Shown piece by piece: positions 1,802 to 30,064 of a stretch of 64,000 nucleotides of DNA. The stretch's first letter is position 1, and each line of letters starts with the position of its first letter. The DNA is from Candidatus Gottesmanbacteria bacterium RIFCSPLOWO2_01_FULL_43_11b (GTDB lineage: Bacteria; Patescibacteriota; Microgenomatia; UBA10105; UBA927). The DNA is taken from positions 37,466 to 101,465 of the forward strand of contig MFJV01000001.1 of assembly GCA_001780985.1 (NCBI GenBank). The letters are read 5' to 3'. The notes beneath the pieces are model-generated. The model was not told where the DNA came from. It saw only the letters and a list, made by a program, of their open reading frames with translations, and did not search any database. The position numbers and the translations under genes are program-made.

Positions 1802-3466
1802 ATGGAAGAAAAAAAGGAAGAAGAGCCAAAAGAACTCCTCACACTTACCAAACAAGTTGACCAGATGGTCCACTCATTTGAGGTGGGAATCCGTGAAACG
1901 AAAAAGAAAGAAACACCGATGCATGTGGATGAAATTGCCTCGAGAATTGCAAAATTTTATGAAATGGTAAGGAAAGTTATTGACTGGAAAGAAGATAATG
2001 TCCTTCGTCGTGCCGCAATCGTTCGAATTCTCAAACGCCTGCTTTTCCCAAAAATAAGCGGTGTATCACTGCGGCCTGATATTGATACATATCGAATTGC
2101 CTATAGTGTCACTGCAGATCTTATTCGCGGCGGGCATCTACCCAATGATGAAATTCCGCAGGAGAGCGTTCTCCTGGTCGAGACTGCAGTAAAGAAATAC
2201 CTCCACATTTTAAAACATGCATCATTTGCAACTGCTGATCCGCTTTTGGTTAAGAGAAAAATAAACTTTACGACGTTTCTTATAGACCTTGCTGCCTGTG
2301 AAATCGAAGAAATCCTTACTAACCCCATAAAAGAACGAGCAATTATTCAGACCATGACAGAACTCATGACAGAACGGATTATCGTTTTACCCGAGGGGAG
2401 CATGAATGACGACGAAAAACGAACGCATGTGTTTATTGCCATTTGCCGAACGCTCTATGAGCTTGATGATGAATTTATTATTTACCAACTCTTAAAATTC
2501 AGTTACCCCGGGTGGCATAATCCGGATGCGGAGCAACTTAAAAAACTGACAGAAGAGGTACCAAAAATTTGGAAATCATCAGATTCAATTCTCGATCATC
2601 CGCTTGCACGACAATTCTATACAATCTGTGAACGCGTCGATACAATCTTCATGCTTTTGGGAGATATCTTAGATAAATATGTTGAGGAACCCAAAAAATT
2701 AAAAGAGGCGCTGCAGGAAAAAAATGAATTAACCAAGTTAGCAACGGAAGCTTACGATAAACGGTACAAAACCCTCAAAACCAGGCTTGTTCGACTTGCC
2801 ATATTTTCGACCCTATCTGTATTTCTTTCCAATTGGGTGACGTTTTATATTATCGAAGTACCGCTTGCCGAAGTTTTTTATGAAGGATTCAACTTGTTTA
2901 CGGCATTTATTGACTTCCTCATCCCCACTGCTCTTATGTTTATTCTTGTTGCCATTATCAGGCCTCCGCCCGAGCAGAATGCAAAACGGGTACTTTCCAC
3001 CCTCTATCGATTTGTCTATGAGGATGAAAAGAAACCACTCTTTGAAGTGAGATTACGCAAACGAAGGAACATCTTTTTCACCTTTATCGTCGCTTTCTTA
3101 TATTTTGCAATGATGTTTTTAGTATTGGGTGGAGTTTGGTATATTTTCTATTTCTTCAAACTCCCAATAACATCAGTATTTTTTGATACATTCACGATTG
3201 CGCTTACTATTTTTGCCGCAGTACTCATCCGTAATAAAGCCCGGGAACTCTCAGTTGATGATCGGACAACATTCTGGGAATTTATTCTCGATATGTTTTC
3301 CGTTCCGGTTGCTAAAATAGGGGAGTTTTTAGCTGCAAAATGGAAAGAATACAACATCATTGCAATTTTATTCACCTTCCTAATCGAAACGCCGTTCGTA
3401 GTTGTACTTGATTTTATCGAAAACTGGAGCCAATACCTCAAGGAGCGGCGGAGCGAACTACACTAA
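1802..3466 (+). CDS. Hypothetical protein: soluble N-terminal domain plus about 5 C-terminal transmembrane helices
   Basis: Long ORF with hydrophobic C-terminal segments; no motif recognised. Confidence 0.45.
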   Translation: MEEKKEEEPKELLTLTKQVDQMVHSFEVGIRETKKKETPMHVDEIASRIAKFYEMVRKVIDWKEDNVLRRAAIVRILKRLLFPKISGVSLRPDIDTYRIAYSVTADLIRGGHLPNDEIPQESVLLVETAVKKYLHILKHASFATADPLLVKRKINFTTFLIDLAACEIEEILTNPIKERAIIQTMTELMTERIIVLPEGSMNDDEKRTHVFIAICRTLYELDDEFIIYQLLKFSYPGWHNPDAEQLKKLTEEVPKIWKSSDSILDHPLARQFYTICERVDTIFMLLGDILDKYVEEPKKLKEALQEKNELTKLATEAYDKRYKTLKTRLVRLAIFSTLSVFLSNWVTFYIIEVPLAEVFYEGFNLFTAFIDFLIPTALMFILVAIIRPPPEQNAKRVLSTLYRFVYEDEKKPLFEVRLRKRRNIFFTFIVAFLYFAMMFLVLGGVWYIFYFFKLPITSVFFDTFTIALTIFAAVLIRNKARELSVDDRTTFWEFILDMFSVPVAKIGEFLAAKWKEYNIIAILFTFLIETPFVVVLDFIENWSQYLKERRSELH

Positions 3467-4346
3467 CTTTATAAATTGAAAGGACGAGCGCCAGAACTCC
3501 AAGTATTTGAGTGGGAGATAGTGGTTTATGGAAATAAGTGTAATCCAAAACCACTGCAGAAAGTGGCCAGGCAAGTTCACAGATGGTTGCGATCCGGGCA
3601 GGTGTTCGTTTGAGACCGTAGTAGTAAATAGAAAGTGCAACCATTCCTGTTGAAAGAGCGATTGCAACCAGTGTCAACCATTGCACCTGTGTGAGTGTCG
3701 GTAAAACTGTATTGTGACCTAAACCTACGACGAGTGCCCCAGCCAGTATCGAGGCAAGACCAAATCTTACAGCAGTTGTTAAAAGTGTCGGGAGTCGGAG
3801 TAAGGCGTACCGGCTAAATACTGTTGAAGACCCCCAGGAAAAAGCTGCTCCGATTGCAAAAAGCGCTGCCATTGTTGTTCCGCTTCCTGTGGAAAGATTC
3901 ACCTGTAAATTTGGAAATGATATGAAATACGCAGCAATAAGGGCGGTAATAAACCAGGGGATATAAGCACGGGATAGTTTTTCCTTGAGAATTATCCGTG
4001 CAAATAGTAATACTACGAACGGCTCCAATTGCTGTAAAAGCACAACCACGGAAAATTGTGCAAACTGAACGAGTCCTAAAGCCGAAGTATATAATACCGT
4101 TCCCATAATACTTGAAAGCACTGTTACCCAGGCAAACGCTCCCCAGGTTTTGATGGATATTTTTTTTAATAAATAGCTTTTGTTAAAAACAATGGGGACA
4201 AGGAAGATAAATCCGATGAGGTGTTCTAAAAATACAACAACGATTGGGGGGAGGGAGTATAAACTTACGCGCAGTAATCCGTCAAAACTCCAAAGAAGAG
4301 CTGCAAGAACAACAAAAACCGGTCCGATTGAAAGGACTTTTTTCAT
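3438..4346 (-). CDS. EamA/DMT-family permease (10 TM); candidate ImpX-like riboflavin transporter given the upstream riboswitch-like leader
   Basis: 302 aa, about 10 hydrophobic helices with two EamA-like halves. Preceded on the minus strand by a structured 5' UTR. Confidence 0.65.
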   Translation of the reverse strand: MKKVLSIGPVFVVLAALLWSFDGLLRVSLYSLPPIVVVFLEHLIGFIFLVPIVFNKSYLLKKISIKTWGAFAWVTVLSSIMGTVLYTSALGLVQFAQFSVVVLLQQLEPFVVLLFARIILKEKLSRAYIPWFITALIAAYFISFPNLQVNLSTGSGTTMAALFAIGAAFSWGSSTVFSRYALLRLPTLLTTAVRFGLASILAGALVVGLGHNTVLPTLTQVQWLTLVAIALSTGMVALSIYYYGLKRTPARIATICELAWPLSAVVLDYTYFHKPLSPTQILGVLALVLSIYKVSVVRSAAP

Positions 4347-4391: not shown

Positions 4392-4556
4392 AGCGGGGTT
4401 ATCCCGTTTTTAACGGGACATCCCGACTGTACGGTCGGCCTACGTATTTCGCGTAGTCATGTCCTATTATGGACTCGTGGGCTTTAACCACCGATTGGGA
4501 CTTCCTGCCCTCCGTAGCTTTATGCGAAGGACGGGTCACCCTACCCCGAAGGATAC
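4392..4556 (-). promoter_or_regulatory. FMN riboswitch (RFN element)-like aptamer in the 5' UTR of the EamA transporter
   Basis: Minus-strand RNA reads CCUUCGGGGUAGGGUGA ... AAGCCCACGAGUCC ... CUACGCGAAAUACGUAGGCCGACCGUACAGUCGGGAUG ... closing helix ACCCCGC. The order and sequence of these segments resemble the conserved RFN blocks CUUCGGGGCAGGGUGA / AGCCCGUGACC / GCCGACAGUGAAAGUCUGGAUG. An RBS-proximal hairpin follows. Confidence 0.45.
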
Positions 4557-4602: not shown

Positions 4603-4631
4603 TTGATACGCTTTCTTATCTACGATATACT
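4603..4631 (+). promoter_or_regulatory. Sigma70-type promoter (TTGATA-17-TATACT) for the GIY-YIG gene and tRNA-His
   Basis: Good -35/-10 hexamers with 17-bp spacing. A GC-rich hairpin (4655-4697) lies in the 5' UTR. Confidence 0.45.
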
Positions 4632-4705
4632 ATCGGTATTGGTGGCCCCTGCCCGCCATCGCAAGCATGAGCTTGCTCAGGCGTTGCGGGCGGGGTAGCT
4701 CATTG

Positions 4706-4942
4706 ATGTATTACACATATGTATTAAAGAGTATTGAGGATAATAAGTTTTATATTGGTTTTACTGATAATTTAAAAAAGCGGTTTCGAGAACATCAGAG
4801 AGGCGAAGTTGAATCGACAAGGACGAGACGTCCATTCATTCTAATTTATTACGAAGCTTGTCTTGATAAGGGACAGGCAATAAAGAGAGAGAAATATTTC
4901 AAAACTGGATTTGGTCGAAGATTTTTAAAATCAAGAATTTAA
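4706..4942 (+). CDS. Small GIY-YIG nuclease-domain protein (UPF0213/YhbQ-like)
   Basis: YTYVLKS..KFYIGFTDNLKKRFREH matches the GIY-(10)-YIG motif plus a conserved Arg/Glu. Only about 78 aa. Confidence 0.7.
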   Translation: MYYTYVLKSIEDNKFYIGFTDNLKKRFREHQRGEVESTRTRRPFILIYYEACLDKGQAIKREKYFKTGFGRRFLKSRI

Positions 4943-4944
4943 TT

Positions 4945-5018
4945 GGTGGCGTGTGCCGAACGGCTTAGGCGTCTGCTTGTGGAGCAGATTTTAGCGGGTT
5001 CAACTCCCGTACGCCACC
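4945..5018 (+). tRNA. tRNA-His(GTG) with the extra G-1 paired to C73; CCA is encoded
   Basis: Acceptor GTGGCGT/ACGCCAC with a preceding G pairing to discriminator C. Anticodon stem TCTGC/GCAGA, loop TTGTGGA. T-arm GCGGG-TTCAACT-CCCGT. CCA follows at 5019-5021. Confidence 0.8.
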
Positions 5019-5056
5019 CCAAAATATCAGCTATGTTATGCTATAATGTCGTTACT

Positions 5057-5296
5057 ATGAAAATTAAGAAATTAGACTACTTGATTGAGTTAACGTACGA
5101 CGCATCTTACAAAGGTTACGTTGCGGATGTCGTTAATTTGTTTGGCTGCATGTCTCAAGGAAAGACGAAAAAGGAAGCGTTAGCGAACGCTGAAAAAGCG
5201 ATTAAAGCCTATATGAAAGTACTCGTCAAAACCGGTAAGAATACTGACATTGTTCGAAGAAGCGTCGGCACTCCAATGCCGGTGGCATATGCCTAA
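5057..5296 (+). CDS. hicB: HicB-family antitoxin (UPF0150)
   Basis: 80 aa. YLIELTYDASYKGYVADVVNLFGCMSQGKTKKEALANAEKAIKAYMK matches the HicB N-terminal RNase-H-like-fold pattern. It overlaps the downstream hicA by 8 nt. The upstream in-frame extension is actually tRNA-His. Confidence 0.6.
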   Translation: MKIKKLDYLIELTYDASYKGYVADVVNLFGCMSQGKTKKEALANAEKAIKAYMKVLVKTGKNTDIVRRSVGTPMPVAYA

Positions 5297-5510
5297 ACTT
5301 ACCAATATCTCCGGTAAAAAGGCAGTCAAGGCATTTCTCAAATTCGGCTACGTTCATGTTCACACATCTGGAGATCACGCAATCCTGCAAAAACCAGGGT
5401 CCCCAACACTCTCAATCCCTCTCCATAAAGAAGTAGCACAATTTCTTCTGAAGTCACAAGTCAAGAGGGCCGAAATTTCAATCCGTGATTTAATCCAAGC
5501 ACTGAAATGA
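5289..5510 (+). CDS. hicA: HicA-family mRNA interferase toxin
   Basis: 73 aa. KKAVKAFLKFGY..HTSGDHAIL..PLHKE fits the HicA/YcfA dsRBD-like motif (GSH...H, P.HK). Antitoxin-then-toxin order with overlap. Confidence 0.6.
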   Translation: MPKLTNISGKKAVKAFLKFGYVHVHTSGDHAILQKPGSPTLSIPLHKEVAQFLLKSQVKRAEISIRDLIQALK

Positions 5511-5584
5511 TCTAACCTCATAATTTCCCTTAACTCCCACATCCGCCGTGTTAGTTACCACCAAAAAAATTATTCCCGGAAGAG

Positions 5585-6352
5585 TTAGTTAAAAACGATT
5601 GCGGGAGGAATGCTGATGCGATCAGCGATCGAATAGAGTTCATTCGCCTCAAATCCGAGGATTTCCGGCAAGTAAAGTATCGCCCGCATATTTTTAGCAA
5701 GAGGAGGAGGGTAGGAACTATCAAACTCGCTTTCTCTCGCAATAGTAGCAATATAGAAATGTTCTATCCCAAGTAACTCTGCCGTAGCTCGAACAGTCGC
5801 ACCCGTGCTATAAACATCTTCTGCAATTGTAAGGCCATACCCATCCGGAGTAAGTTTTGCAATCGCCCTTCGGTCTTCCGGCATTATTCCGACATATTTC
5901 GCCTTTCCGGTCGCAAGCCGTGTCACGGGTACATATGCTACTGCGACATCTCCTGTGATATGCTTAACCTCATCGGCGGACTCTCCTCCTATTAACTGAA
6001 TTACTTTCTGCGGTTTTTTGTGAAGAATTGCAATTGCGGTGTCTATAAAAAGACCTGATTTGGTTGATGGTTCTTTAATAACAATCCTGGGTTTCATTTT
6101 TTCAAGTAGACCGGCCATTTCTTTTGAAGATGCAAGTGCCAGTTCATAATTTATGTTTGGATCGGGTATGAAAAAAGCGATTGCTTTCGATTGATTGTCA
6201 CCGACATTCACGAGAGGTAATCCAAAACGACGACCACCGAGTTTTATGGGAAGCCAACGTTTGCCTTCAAAAAGGATAATATCTTCTTTACCATATACAT
6301 CTGGTTTTCCGATAATCATATCGTGCACTCGTTCGAAATAGGGGATTGGCAT
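5585..6352 (-). CDS. Type I phosphoribosyltransferase-domain protein
   Basis: C-terminal LTIAEDVYSTGATVRAT resembles the PRPP-binding motif of type I PRTases. N-terminal about 150 aa unassigned. Confidence 0.45.
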   Translation of the reverse strand: MPIPYFERVHDMIIGKPDVYGKEDIILFEGKRWLPIKLGGRRFGLPLVNVGDNQSKAIAFFIPDPNINYELALASSKEMAGLLEKMKPRIVIKEPSTKSGLFIDTAIAILHKKPQKVIQLIGGESADEVKHITGDVAVAYVPVTRLATGKAKYVGIMPEDRRAIAKLTPDGYGLTIAEDVYSTGATVRATAELLGIEHFYIATIARESEFDSSYPPPLAKNMRAILYLPEILGFEANELYSIADRISIPPAIVFN

Positions 6353-6425
6353 ATATAAGCGGGCAGATAAAAACGACTATAAAGTACCATTCACGCCATT
6401 GTCAAGCTAATCTTTCTCTCCAATT

Positions 6426-6434
6426 TGATATAAT
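6426..6434 (+). promoter_or_regulatory. Extended -10 promoter element (TGaTATAAT) for the tRNA-Arg/tRNA-Lys/GIY-YIG transcript
   Basis: TG-n-TATAAT about 10 nt upstream of tRNA-Arg. Confidence 0.4.
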
Positions 6435-6443
6435 TAGAGCATT

Positions 6444-6517
6444 GCGCCTGTAGCTTAACCGGATAGAGCGTCTGTCTTCGGAACAGAAGGTTGGGGGTTC
6501 GATTCCCTCCAGGCGCG
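6444..6517 (+). tRNA. tRNA-Arg(TCG)
   Basis: Cloverleaf: acceptor GCGCCTG/CAGGCGC, anticodon loop CTTCGGA, T-arm GGGGG-TTCGATT-CCCTC. Confidence 0.8.
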
Positions 6518-6525
6518 CATAATGA

Positions 6526-6597
6526 GGGCGCATAGCTCAACGGTAGAGCAACTTCCTCTTAAGAAGTCGGTTGGAGGTTCGAATCCTCCTGCGCTCA
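6526..6597 (+). tRNA. tRNA-Lys(CTT)
   Basis: Acceptor GGGCGCA/TGCGCTC, anticodon loop CTCTTAA, T-arm GGAGG-TTCGAAT-CCTCC. Confidence 0.8.
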
Positions 6598-6601
6598 CAA
6601 T

Positions 6602-6850
6602 ATGATATGGTTTGTGTATATAGTCCGCTGCGCGGATAATACGCTATATACCGGTATTACCACCGATATTACTAGGAGAGTACGGGAACACAATGGTGAG
6701 ATCGGAACCGGTGCCCGCTATACGCTTTCAAAACGGCCTGTTACTCTTGTGTATTCCAAAAAAATGAAATCGAGAAGTGCCGCACTTATCTACGAAGCAA
6801 AAATAAAAAAGCTTTCCCGTGATGAAAAAAATGCTATGCTTACGGTATGA
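6602..6850 (+). CDS. Small GIY-YIG nuclease-domain protein (second copy), immediately 3' of tRNA-Lys
   Basis: WFVYIVRCADNTLYTGITTDITRRVREHN is a GIY-YIG motif. 82 aa. Starts 5 nt after the tRNA. Confidence 0.7.
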   Translation: MIWFVYIVRCADNTLYTGITTDITRRVREHNGEIGTGARYTLSKRPVTLVYSKKMKSRSAALIYEAKIKKLSRDEKNAMLTV

Positions 6851-7581
6851 ACTTTGATCTTGAAGAACATCTCCGGAAGGAACATAAACGGACTGCGTTT
6901 TCGCAGTACCTCCGGGAAATTGTATACGGCGGAAACGACGGAATTGTGACGACATTTGCGGTTGTTGCAGGCTTTGCGGGTGCACAAAGGGATCCTGCCA
7001 CAAGCGCCGTTCCCGTAGTTTCGGTGCTTCTTTTCGGATTAGCAAATTTGTTTGCAGACGGATTATCCATGAGTCTCGGAAGTTTCCTTTCCATCCGGGC
7101 TGATCAGGATGTGTACAGAAACGAGAGAGCGAAAGAGCATCACGAAATTATACATTCGACGCAATCTGAATTTGACGAAACCGTTGAGATTCTCAAACGC
7201 CAGAAATTTGGGGAAGCTGATGCGCAAGCAATTGCAAAACTGTACCAAAAAAATGAAACCTATTGGACGGAATTTATGATGACCGATGAACTGCAAATGA
7301 CGAATCCTGAAAATGAAAAACCAGTTTCCATTGCACTTGCAACGTTTGGAGCGTTCATCTTTTTTGGTTTTATTCCGCTCGTACCGTATGTGCTTCGGCT
7401 GAAACAGGGAAATCTCTTTGAAATTTCCGTACTTTTTACCGCTGCCGCACTTATATTCTTAGGTTTTTTTCGCGCAATTGTTGCGAGACAGCGGATGCTA
7501 CGGGGAATCATAGAAACGCTCATCGTTGGTGGATCTGCCGCAGGAGTCGCGTATCTCGTTGGCTCATTTTTCAGAATTTGA
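6847..7581 (+). CDS. VIT1/CCC1-family (DUF125) iron/manganese transporter
   Basis: YGGNDGIVTTFAVVAGFAGA signature and C-terminal TM helices. ATGA overlap with the upstream gene. Confidence 0.75.
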   Translation: MNFDLEEHLRKEHKRTAFSQYLREIVYGGNDGIVTTFAVVAGFAGAQRDPATSAVPVVSVLLFGLANLFADGLSMSLGSFLSIRADQDVYRNERAKEHHEIIHSTQSEFDETVEILKRQKFGEADAQAIAKLYQKNETYWTEFMMTDELQMTNPENEKPVSIALATFGAFIFFGFIPLVPYVLRLKQGNLFEISVLFTAAALIFLGFFRAIVARQRMLRGIIETLIVGGSAAGVAYLVGSFFRI

Positions 7582-8921: not shown

Positions 8922-9004
8922 GCTCCCGTGGCGGAATCTGGTATACGCGTACGCTTTAGGAGCGTATCCCGCAAGGGTTAGAGGTTCAACTCCTCTCGGG
9001 AGCA
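8922..9004 (+). tRNA. tRNA-Leu(TAG), class II with a long variable arm
   Basis: Acceptor GCTCCCG/CGGGAGC, anticodon stem TACGC/GCGTA with loop TTTAGGA, variable arm CCCGCAAGGG, T-arm AGAGG-TTCAACT-CCTCT. Confidence 0.75.
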
Positions 9005-9008
9005 CATA

Positions 9009-12062: not shown

Positions 12063-12134
12063 GGACGATTAGCTCAGTGGTAGAGCGCTGCATTCACATT
12101 GCAGATGTCGCAGGTTCAAATCCTGCATCGTCCA
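12063..12134 (+). tRNA. tRNA-Val(CAC)
   Basis: Acceptor GGACGAT/ATCGTCC, D-arm GCTC-AGTGGTA-GAGC, anticodon loop TTCACAT, T-arm GCAGG-TTCAAAT-CCTGC. Confidence 0.8.
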
Positions 12135-12191
12135 CAAGATCCACCTCTTGACCCCCAATAATTAGTAAGTTATCTTACAATTTCCCTGCAC

Positions 12192-29269: not shown

Positions 29270-29371
29270 TGATGGTTTTCTTAAATATGGGGAGCTCGTG
29301 AAACGGGCTGAGAGTTCCGTCAGTAGACGGATGACCCTTTGAACCTGTTCGGATAATGCCGGCGGAGGGAC

Positions 29372-30064
29372 ATGAACGTAGAACGCGTATTTCTCAAACG
29401 AATCGATAAAGCAAATCTCGTGTGTCAACAACACCAAATTTGTAACCACGACCACAAGCATCACAAACGCGTTCTTGAAAACGCACTTGTTATAAACAGC
29501 ATCCTACCAAAACCTTTTAACGAACGGGATATACATACACTTGTTCTCGGCCATGACATCGGCTATAGTTGCCAAGGAATTGTCTGGGTAGGGAAAAATG
29601 CTATTAATCATGCTCAACGAGGTAATGAAGTTCTCAAACGCGCTGCGACAATATTTCTGAGAGGCCAAGAAAAAATCGCCGTAGTCGCGCTTATTAATAC
29701 ACTCCCCACAAACACAAAAGAAGCCATAGCACGTCTTGAGGCAACCGATCCTCTTCCTGCCGCAATTAAACTGGCTGATTGTCTAGACTACTTTCACACT
29801 GATCGTGTCAAGCATGTCCCTCAACCCTATCCTGACGAACATAACTACTACTTTTTAGCTAAGAGTGTTACGTCATACACAATCCATAACGAAGCACCCA
29901 AAACACTCGCATGGACCATTGATCTCAAGCCGGGCGTCGACAAAACCTTGTGGGAGTCGACCGCACAAGCAAATTTTCAACAAATTTTTACTCTTGCAGA
30001 ACTCTTTGCACAACGACTGCATTTTACATTTCGACTCGCATTGACATTGAATGGGGAGGCATGA
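29372..30064 (+). CDS. Hypothetical protein, possibly an HD-domain phosphohydrolase
   Basis: H..H...LVLGHDIGY...D pattern compatible with an HD domain. Weak. Confidence 0.3.
   Translation: MNVERVFLKRIDKANLVCQQHQICNHDHKHHKRVLENALVINSILPKPFNERDIHTLVLGHDIGYSCQGIVWVGKNAINHAQRGNEVLKRAATIFLRGQEKIAVVALINTLPTNTKEAIARLEATDPLPAAIKLADCLDYFHTDRVKHVPQPYPDEHNYYFLAKSVTSYTIHNEAPKTLAWTIDLKPGVDKTLWESTAQANFQQIFTLAELFAQRLHFTFRLALTLNGEA

Follow-up and report, generated by a model that had tools for sequence, protein, structure and literature searches.

Genes for GIY-YIG nucleases that lie outside any intron, among or next to tRNA genes, are known from phage T4, whose tRNA gene cluster holds SegB (PMC2330249), and free-standing GIY-YIG homing genes are present in some genomes, absent from close relatives and copied along with flanking markers. 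Here, we describe a gene that shares these properties and, unlike SegB, belongs to a cellular genome, that of Candidatus Gottesmanbacteria bacterium RIFCSPLOWO2_01_FULL_43_11b, a member of the candidate phyla radiation (CPR, Patescibacteria). The stretch analyzed (contig MFJV01000001.1, positions 37,466 to 101,465, 64,000 nucleotides; hereafter the window) holds two small stand-alone GIY-YIG open reading frames (ORFs), called g1 and g2 below. g1 ends just before a tRNA-His gene and g2 starts just after a tRNA-Lys gene, and an earlier note on this DNA had treated the two as one phenomenon. We propose that they are not: g1 is probably the nuclease gene of a tiny selfish insertion module of CPR bacteria that consists of the ORF and a GC-rich palindrome (hp), and g2 is an ordinary, vertically inherited gene of the UPF0213 type.

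Several described systems share part of the properties of g1. Enzymes of the Seg and I-TevI type have at least 200 aa, a separate DNA-binding domain and a place in the UvrC/homing endonuclease lineage, in contrast to g1, a 78-aa protein of the Slx1/UPF0213 lineage that consists of the bare domain. To our knowledge, Seg genes have not been described with a palindrome or with a duplicated 5' part of the target. As minimal catalytic domains, the closer counterparts are the UPF0213 proteins BH0048 (1zg2) and EF2693 (1ywl) and eukaryotic Slx1, and g2 is a canonical member of this group. Slx1 cuts branched or hairpin DNA. Two papers describe it as a structure-specific nuclease acting on branched DNA (PMC6902002, PMC4407285), and Dunin-Horkawicz et al. 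found prokaryotic Slx1-like proteins to be minimal domains with vertical inheritance, the selfish GIY-YIG enzymes being derived from the other lineage (PMC1564403). The g1 subfamily does not fit this vertical, non-selfish picture, as it acts like a mobile insertion. Its invariant C-terminus, REKYFKTGFGRR, is distinctive too.

The palindrome has parallels of its own. Like the GC clusters of yeast mitochondria (PMC4478555), hp is a short GC-rich imperfect palindrome that occurs in many copies and in both orientations in an AT-richer genome and, like mobile GC-rich palindromes in general, it inserts in spacers, beside tRNA genes and in frame in protein genes, with copies nested in each other. Yeast M-type clusters duplicate TAG, whereas hp inserts without target-site duplication. 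The PstI palindromes of Neurospora flank mitochondrial tRNA genes, and the Rickettsia palindromic elements are further mobile palindromes. We know of no dedicated nuclease gene for mitochondrial GC clusters, Neurospora PstI palindromes or Rickettsia palindromic elements; hp, unlike these, is closely linked with one particular nuclease ORF, and its loop can hold that ORF. Repetitive extragenic palindromic (REP) sequences and bacterial interspersed mosaic elements (BIME), together with the IS200/IS605-like REP-associated tyrosine transposases (RAYTs), likewise combine a family of short imperfect palindromes with one small nuclease gene and no target duplication, but RAYTs are HUH Y1 transposases and REPs are not aimed at the 5' ends of tRNA genes. 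No strand-transfer chemistry is known to us for a GIY-YIG nuclease. Finally, islands and proviruses that carry an integrase also land at tRNA genes, leave direct repeats of part of the tRNA and keep an intact tRNA, but they are kilobases long, use tyrosine or serine recombinases and usually duplicate the 3' part of the tRNA, whereas the g1 unit is about 300 bp long, recombinase-free and associated with a duplicated 5' part. None of the systems compared unites a bare Slx1-like domain, a gene-carrying flip-flop palindrome and a 5' target duplication.

In the literature searched, which covered few subscription-journal papers, we found no description of an ORF, hp and a tRNA gene in this arrangement. 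It goes unmentioned in a 2026 survey of patescibacterial tRNA introns (PMC13011429), and a 2024 survey reports that CPR rRNA genes have non-intron insertions with GIY-YIG ORFs (PMC11270868). The g1 family is apparently an undescribed and widespread family of mobile genes in CPR bacteria.

Results

Most g1-type ORFs stand shortly before tRNA genes

Loci with relatives of g1 were taken from species-representative genomes as the best-scoring 80 of at least 586 and are thus not a random sample; all relatives are metagenome-assembled contigs (numbered L for loci and P for proteins below). tRNA genes were located with ARAGORN, and the expected adjacency was calculated from how densely the remaining 51 tRNAs lie in these 641 kb. 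A same-strand tRNA follows within 150 nt downstream of 51 of 83 g1-type ORF copies, against 0.5 expected (P=4e-91), and within 20 nt in 36 of the 83; an opposite-strand tRNA within 150 nt is found for none of them. At the level of the family, the placement of g1 is hence not due to chance, as the earlier note had argued for both genes. Adjacency was hidden by mis-extended ORF ends in two further cases (L069, L072), two loci reach the contig end (L047, L052), a tRNA-His next to the ORF of L048 was missed by ARAGORN, and the tRNAs beside the ORFs in L014 and L025 appear to be interrupted by an intron. Including such apparent exceptions, a manual tally gives approximately 63 of 83 tRNA-linked copies.

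The downstream tRNAs comprise 19 anticodon types. The nearest ORF relative lies at the same tRNA type in 16 of 52 cases against 5 expected, a clustering so weak that we rejected stable tRNA-type-specific ORF lineages, and the closest relative of the window g1 (P0003, 77% identity) is found at a tRNA-Lys, not at a tRNA-His. In the window itself, the 2-nt gap given by the earlier note is exact, with the stop codon TAA at 4940-4942, then TT and then the encoded G-1 at 4945. As read from these positions, the module settles at the 5' ends of genes, overwhelmingly tRNA genes, with the ORF ending 0-20 nt before an intact same-strand tRNA.

Some observations made in the same loci concern other elements. 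In L014 (5240-5440, tRNA-Asn) and L025 (4093-4300, tRNA-Lys) the tRNA gene breaks off in or just after the anticodon loop and is followed by approximately 200 nt that resemble a group I intron. Other, more divergent small GIY-YIG ORFs of CPR loci follow tRNA genes at a distance of approximately 35-180 nt (L174 3198-3607, L008 5465-5698, L022 1128-1277, L001 4660-4895 and L037 5486-5704), and further GIY-YIG subfamilies may share a weaker tRNA association. The label "uncultured Gammaproteobacteria" on some deposited contigs looks wrong, judging from contig content.

A palindrome and a duplicated tRNA 5' fragment precede the ORF

The sequence at 4638-4702, between the promoter-like site and g1 (Table 1), escaped the earlier note and reads as a 5' fragment of a tRNA-His gene that is split by hp. 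The part of the fragment 5' of the palindrome corresponds to tRNA-His positions -3 to +5, including G-1, and recurs at the end of g1 as the start of the intact gene. The part 3' of the palindrome, GTAGCTCA, does not match the D-arm of the intact tRNA-His (TGTGCCGAACGG) but agrees with the usual CPR tRNA-His, as in L033. Because the D-arms differ, we take the fragment and the intact tRNA-His to be different alleles, as in L012 and L061. The promoter-like site is the sole one on the + strand between 4350 and 6286, and none stands directly before the intact tRNA-His; it is presumably the original tRNA-His promoter, which now lies 5' of the fragment, the palindrome, g1 and tRNA-His. Co-transcription of g1 with tRNA-His is plausible on this layout.

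The 47-nt core of the window hp is found, with one base different, in two loci from other organisms (L015, L045), and its reverse complement is present in three more (L027, L054, L070). Within the window there is no second hp and no other perfect GC-rich 9-bp inverted repeat, and Rfam finds no structured RNA over 4640-4705, its sole nearby match being a sub-threshold flavin mononucleotide (FMN) riboswitch on the opposite strand. An alternative start of g1 at 4667 (ORF 4667-4942, 91 aa) translates hp and the tRNA fragment and is a gene-calling artefact. The same holds for the long N-terminal extensions of some homologues (P0076, P0111; ..PATPRK..LRGGRGS..).

Across the family, hp has the form CCCGCCCGCC..GCGGGCGGG and is a GC-rich imperfect palindrome of 36-62 nt. 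In 36 of the 40 loci with hp upstream, the sequence flanking it rebuilds the 5' part of the downstream tRNA. Without hp, the fragment agrees with the downstream locus over a stretch that begins at the ORF stop or a few nucleotides before +1 and ends at tRNA position 15-38, giving a direct repeat of 11-46 nt, after which an AT-rich linker and the start codon come next. From our reading of the tabulated values, the distance from +1 to the ATG clusters at approximately 37-41, that is, at the anticodon loop. hp enters the tRNA sequence at position 6-22, in most cases at a D-loop edge, and its insertion is clean, with no target-site duplication. The two orientations are equally common upstream of the ORF (19:19) and similarly so downstream (7:9). 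There are 49 distinct sequences among the 59 copies, 90% of which fold with z below -2 compared with shuffles. Only 1 of 38 ORF-less tRNAs in g1-type loci has an hp nearby, and hp is absent from 441 kb of unrelated loci. In being short, conserved, multi-copy, imperfect, present in both orientations and polymorphic for insertion, hp has the properties of a mobile palindromic repeat.

Four loci (L007, L017, L042, L180) have the ORF enclosed by hp, whose two arms serve as terminal inverted repeats. When L180 2964-3275 is taken out, an uninterrupted 55-aa ORF results in which a Pfam MazE_antitoxin match spans the junction and, because removal of this unit restores the MazE-like frame, the hp termini are the exact boundaries of the element. 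A solo hp looks like the ORF-less form of the same element. The layout also recurs at a protein gene: at an NAD-epimerase gene in three genomes (L019, L031, L056), a 5' fragment, hp and the ORF precede a complete gene that restarts at its ATG. The loops of hp are insertion hot spots, as seen in nested hp copies, a tRNA-Val in an hp loop and in-frame hp-like palindromes in protein genes. In L062 (5238-5470) a complete tRNA-Val(CAC) occupies an hp loop, and that hp lies in the D-loop of a second, decaying tRNA-Val(CAC). Hp-like GC-rich palindromes stand in frame in coding genes at L065 6123-6152 (30 nt) and L031 1679-1741 (63 nt); one of the two genes is tsaD-like, and the palindromes contribute a PAR...GG peptide, much like Rickettsia palindromic elements.

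Several familiar kinds of element were considered for this unit and rejected. g1 is not an ORF in a tRNA intron, either group I or excised as RNA, given that a complete tRNA including the 5' acceptor strand follows the ORF and that Rfam finds no intron. A simple transposon with a fixed target-site duplication does not fit repeats that range from 11 to 46 nt and an hp that has none. Campbell-type integration of a mini-circle at other tRNA types via D-arm homology predicts chimeric, non-functional acceptor stems, which are not seen, and a tRNA-targeting integrative element with a tyrosine or serine recombinase is at odds with a unit of approximately 300 bp that encodes the GIY-YIG ORF only.

Sites are filled, empty or decayed

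Empty sites were found for one locus type only, tRNA-Lys(TTT). The locus tRNA-Glu/MscS-like/tRNA-Lys(TTT) carries the ORF and hp in L003, L008, L023, L034, L039, L046 and L177, whereas the orthologous loci L171-L174, with the same gene order and a flank protein 71-83% identical, have neither. The spacer measures 102-298 nt in these empty loci compared with 452 nt in L003. A promoter, TTGATT-17-TGGTAAAAT, is common to filled and empty loci and lies upstream of the ORF, which in filled loci starts approximately 20 nt past the -10 box. Here hp follows tRNA position 3, and its terminal GGG regenerates the 5' end of the tRNA. Because an empty locus (83% flank identity) is nearer to L003 than several filled ones are, the ORF and hp must have been gained or lost repeatedly. 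ORF identity is decoupled from flank identity in syntenic pairs. The Saccharibacteria tRNA-Gln loci are rearranged in gene order and are unusable for a comparison of this kind.

Copies in decay are also found: L026 has an in-frame stop, L036 a collapsed ORF (ATGTTTTTAAAAAATAGAATATAA) and L060 a fragment and hp without an ORF. Tandem arrays are present in L006 and L065. In L061, a tRNA-Thr that bears hp is split by the ORF together with a different, intact tRNA-Thr allele, with GCT microhomology at the right junction; by its sequence, this junction resembles the footprint expected from break repair that copied an occupied donor. The g1 family thus has two marks of free-standing homing genes, presence or absence at an orthologous site and a history decoupled from the host with degenerate copies.

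Large serine recombinase genes were seen near the tRNA-Lys/tRNA-Glu locus, in L177 (3338-5062, - strand) directly after tRNA-Lys and in L172 (3462-4709, - strand). A conventional integrative element, too, seems to make use of this locus.

g1 encodes a minimal nuclease of the Slx1/UPF0213 lineage

g1 and g2 are the sole GIY-YIG ORFs in the window (six-frame phmmer), and their proteins are 29% identical. Both are intact, domain-only proteins of approximately 80 aa, as the earlier note had it, and both match Pfam GIY-YIG PF01541 (cut-off 22.6), with 62.7 bits (E 4e-17) for g1 and 63.0 bits (E 3e-17) for g2. The note had also asked for the catalytic Arg and Glu, and these are invariant in both family alignments: the invariant residues are Y5, Y16, G18, R26, H30 and E62 in the g1 family (Tyr, Tyr-x-Gly, catalytic Arg, His and Glu) and Y6, Y16, G18, R26, H30 and E65 in the g2 family.

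The homologues of g1 form more than 2000 clusters, mostly of 78 aa and 60-77% identity, in many CPR phyla. The C-terminus of the g1 subfamily is basic and invariant, and the C-terminal third has no invariant Asn, a trait of the Slx1/UPF0213 lineage, in which a minimal domain lacks the C-terminal Asn motif. The entire 78-aa protein is catalytic domain, with no extended DNA-recognition module. The AlphaFold model (mean predicted local distance difference test 95.4) shows the GIY-YIG fold, a three-stranded sheet flanked by helices in the order beta-beta-alpha-beta-alpha (strands 2-9, 15-20 and 44-52; helices 23-32, 55-65 and 68-77). Profile searches gave E-values of 3e-8 for 1zg2, 2e-7 for 1ywl, 0.0045-0.1 for SLX1, 0.14 for I-TevI and 0.29 for UvrC, and Foldseek matched the model to 1zg2, Slx1 and I-TevI, with template modelling scores of 0.65-0.71 for Slx1 compared with 0.50-0.55 for I-TevI. 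By profile and predicted fold, the g1 nuclease is closest to UPF0213 (1zg2, 1ywl) and Slx1, ahead of I-TevI and UvrC. Group I intron endonucleases of NCBIfam match g1 below threshold only. The best matches among phage homologues are at most 42% identical, and a phage origin was rejected for want of a closer one.

A subfamily of g1 homologues with 84 aa, ending in ..SYLTG, occurs in some CPR, Desulfobacterota, Aminicenantes and others (L055, L059, L064, L071, L073 and L075-L080), often at the very start of a host gene. Neither hp nor a tRNA is present at these loci; instead, an inverted repeat of 13-18 bp (ACCCTGTTAAATA ... TATTTAACAGGGT) surrounds the whole ORF, with compensatory changes between loci.

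g2 is a resident gene in an inherited gene order

The g2 family is of the canonical UPF0213 type and taxonomically broad, and only 1 of 80 g2-family metagenome loci has a tRNA within 150 nt. Close orthologues of g2 share an order of tRNA-Arg(TCG), tRNA-Lys(CTT), g2, genes for proteins of 198 aa and 186 aa and tRNA-Leu(TAG), with trigger factor further on. The same tRNA pair precedes g2 in L161-L163, in which the gap from tRNA-Lys to g2 is 0 nt; the two tRNAs are inverted near the orthologue in L167, and a protein gene lies directly upstream instead of the tRNAs in L164-L166 and L168-L170. The downstream order of 198 aa, 186 aa and tRNA-Leu is common to all orthologue loci compared (L161-L170). 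The position of g2 after tRNA-Lys therefore reads as the conserved gene order of this Microgenomates lineage in a compact genome, and not as a property of the family.

The comparison across relatives that the earlier note had called for thus separates the two genes: tRNA adjacency is the rule in the g1-type sample and nearly absent from the g2 family. What the note said of g2 holds in part. Its tight adjacency to tRNA-Lys stands, with the start 4 nt past the discriminator at 6597 instead of 5 nt after the tRNA, and its juxtaposition is not random, being common to close orthologues, but does not extend to the wider family. An extended -10 box, TGATATAAT, was spotted by eye at 6426-6434, and co-transcription of g2 with tRNA-Arg and tRNA-Lys is possible in this lineage. 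The stop of g2 overlaps the start of a VIT1-family gene (6847-7581) as ATGA (6847-6850), and the VIT1 gene is absent from that position in all g2 orthologue loci examined.

Neighbouring features of the window

The features around the two genes are listed in Table 1. The window has a G+C content of 43%. The HicB-HicA pair lies just 3' of tRNA-His, as noted earlier, with HicB starting 35 nt past the encoded CCA (5019-5021) rather than at 36 nt; HicB and HicA overlap by 8 nt. Nothing in the sequence ties HicBA to the g1 module, and it is best regarded as a mere neighbour.

Table 1 Positions of tRNA genes, GIY-YIG genes and associated elements in the window
Feature	Position	Strand	Evidence or remark
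Promoter-like site, sigma-70 type, TTGATA-17 nt-TATACT	4603..4631	+	10/12 consensus matches; putative function
Direct repeat, upstream copy, 9 nt, ATTGGTGGC	4638..4646	+	Sequence reading, junction analyses
hp, GC-rich imperfect palindrome, 48 nt, CCCTGCCCGCCATCGCAAGCATGAGCTTGCTCAGGCGTTGCGGGCGGG	4647..4694	+	Folds as hairpin
D-arm-like GTAGCTCA, tRNA positions 7-14 (D-stem, D-loop start)	4695..4702	+	Sequence reading, junction analysis
TTG between D-arm-like piece and g1 start codon	4703-4705	+	Sequence reading
g1, 78-aa stand-alone GIY-YIG nuclease gene, UPF0213/Slx1-like branch	4706..4942	+	Pfam, homologues, AlphaFold, Foldseek
Direct repeat, downstream copy, ATTGGTGGC	4942..4950	+	Starts on last base of g1 stop
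tRNA-His(GTG), intact, encoded G-1 and CCA	4945..5021 (ARAGORN/Rfam 4946-5021)	+	ARAGORN, Rfam, sequence reading
HicB	5057-5296	+	HicB_lk PF15919, 26.2 bits vs cut-off 27, marginal
HicA	5289-5510	+	PF07927, 41.6 bits vs cut-off 27
tRNA-Arg(TCG)	6444-6518	+	ARAGORN, Rfam
tRNA-Lys(CTT)	6526-6598	+	ARAGORN, Rfam
g2, 82-aa canonical UPF0213-type GIY-YIG gene	6602..6850	+	Pfam, family alignment, orthologue loci
tRNA-Leu	8922-9005		ARAGORN/Rfam
tRNA-Val	12063-12135		ARAGORN/Rfam

The FMN riboswitch-like element on the - strand (4411-4517; 55.3 bits, E 3.5e-11, below the Rfam gathering score of 66.2) sits 5' of an EamA-family transporter gene (3438-4346, - strand), which, from this arrangement, probably encodes a riboflavin-regulated transporter. 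A promoter-like site of the EamA gene (4590-4561) diverges from the tRNA-His promoter. A thiamine pyrophosphate (TPP) riboswitch at 29278-29387 (+ strand) scores 61.7 bits, above the gathering score. The segment 3438-5510, with EamA and its riboswitch, the g1 unit, tRNA-His and HicBA, is flanked by genes for proteins of 554 aa and 255 aa; in the relative L161, distant homologues of these two genes (23% and 28% identity) lie side by side. The entire segment may have arisen by insertion or rearrangement around tRNA-His.

Discussion

The architecture of the g1 unit, its polarity, its recurrence at 19 tRNA types and at protein genes, its insertional nature, its presence or absence at orthologous sites, its boundaries where the ORF lies in hp, the survival of an intact target gene and its decay products are direct observations. 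The selfish endonuclease with tRNA genes as landing sites, one of the ideas of the earlier note, accounts for the polar adjacency, the filled and empty sites, the decay and the host-decoupled similarity of g1, and falls away for g2, which stands in an inherited block without a family-wide tRNA link.

How such a module would work can be outlined. Insertion would be tolerated because the 5' duplication keeps a working tRNA. The ORF would be transcribed from the tRNA promoter, given that one promoter-like site stands before the fragment and none before the intact tRNA, and that the promoter is kept in filled and empty tRNA-Lys loci. Cleavage by RNase P at the tRNA 5' end would free a message ending just past the stop codon. 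The small and probably multimeric, structure-specific nuclease would nick or cut hairpin-forming DNA, such as hp and the stem-loops of tRNA genes, and spread would be homing-like, with an occupied locus as the template from which repair copies the ORF, hp and, in some cases, the neighbouring tRNA. The first 5' duplication could stem from nicks that are staggered between the strands and filled in before a fragment is joined. A bolder proposal, which we put forward tentatively and hold to be less probable than its opposite, is that the g1 family and hp are an unrecognised class of bacterial mobile element in which an Slx1-like structure-specific nuclease mobilises a flip-flop palindrome, with or without the gene in its loop, into hairpin-forming DNA including tRNA-gene stem-loops, and repair duplicates the 5' part of the target and so preserves the host gene.

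Several points weigh against the reading of g1 as a selfish module. The homing-like mechanism is an inference from sequence. The protein is a bare 78-aa catalytic domain without a DNA-binding domain, unlike the characterised GIY-YIG homing enzymes. If tRNA DNA is the target, the intact tRNA beside the ORF would still be cleavable, and the reading gives no account of the immunity of an occupied locus, nor of the origin of the 5' duplication. Nor does it explain why hp sits in the upstream copy at most loci but at others separates the ORF from the tRNA or surrounds the ORF. Conservation of the ORF is strong, and the module persists at orthologous sites with a flank identity of 45-60%, a pattern that host benefit would also give. 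The sample consists of the best-scoring 80 of at least 586 metagenome loci and is not random, with empty sites for a single locus type.

Chance in a compact genome, in which two 250-bp genes happen to lie beside tRNAs, would be in line with five tRNAs in an 8-kb part of the window and with g2-type genes abutting any upstream feature at 0-6 nt. For g1 it was already refuted by the 51 of 83 copies and has to contend with the tRNA-fragment and hp architecture too, and for g2 a neighbourhood common to orthologues is inherited, not random, such that we give chance next to no credence. The earlier note had also suggested tRNA end-processing or repair, in the sense that small GIY-YIG proteins process, repair or quality-control neighbouring tRNAs or tRNA genes and are co-transcribed with them for that reason. 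The tight same-strand layout, the strong purifying selection on the ORF, the fusion of prokaryotic Slx1-like domains to a TrmH-type tRNA methyltransferase (Dunin-Horkawicz et al., PMC1564403) and the position of g2 orthologues straight after tRNA-Lys all speak for such a role. However, tRNAs of 19 types occur as the neighbour, the module is also found at an epimerase gene, in a MazE-like gene and in AT-rich spacers, close relatives have the same tRNA-Lys locus without it, and the g2 family has no tRNA link. This explanation also leaves the upstream tRNA fragments and palindromes without a role, and the nearest structural relatives are DNA structure-specific nucleases. Hence, we consider a role in tRNA metabolism very unlikely.

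A module of mobile origin could by now be kept for host benefit, for example the resolution of hairpins or R-loops at highly transcribed tRNA genes or the recombinational repair of tRNA genes. Its persistence at orthologous tRNA loci with a flanking-protein identity of just 45-60%, the 60-77% identity of the ORFs with invariant catalytic residues across CPR phyla and an Slx1-like fold suited to structure-specific DNA processing would fit this. Such domestication is nevertheless improbable in view of presence and absence that alternate in close relatives, ORF similarity uncoupled from flank similarity, pseudogenes and collapsed copies, an insertion that breaks a MazE-like gene and tandem arrays (L006, L065). 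A different question is whether the palindrome acts as RNA, that is, whether hp or the repeat of the 84-aa subfamily is a site of RNase III-type processing or a stabilising hairpin that parts the ORF message from the host transcript, like the intervening sequences of rRNA, rather than DNA on which the nuclease acts. Such a function would be consistent with a selfish module, and an RNA-level role of the stems stays in play because the inverted repeat that encloses the ORF of the 84-aa subfamily shows compensatory changes. The position of hp in a presumed transcribed leader and the GIY-YIG ORFs in non-intron insertions of CPR rRNA genes (PMC11270868) point in the same direction. Against it, the 1:1 orientations swap asymmetric internal loops, hp-like palindromes stand in frame in protein genes and nested in each other's loops, and the arms of hp are the exact limits of a DNA insertion. 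We regard an RNA-level role as unlikely, though less so than domestication.

With g1 read as a selfish module, a unit of approximately 300 bp has reached more than 2000 protein clusters despite the tiny genomes of CPR bacteria. The module would account for much of what is annotated as "GIY-YIG nuclease family protein" in CPR genomes and for stray tRNA fragments; in annotation, such tRNA fragments and the in-frame N-terminal extensions of the ORFs are artefacts, and the allele of the intact tRNA behind the ORF may have been imported. It would show a selfish gene that occupies the front of an essential, strongly transcribed gene non-lethally, with the 5' part duplicated and the promoter borrowed. 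It also provides a candidate enzyme for mobile GC-rich palindromes, the link so far missing for mitochondrial GC clusters and Rickettsia palindromic elements. If true, the g1 family would be the first selfish lineage in the Slx1/UPF0213 branch, and the module a bacterial equivalent of mitochondrial GC clusters for which the enzyme at work is known.

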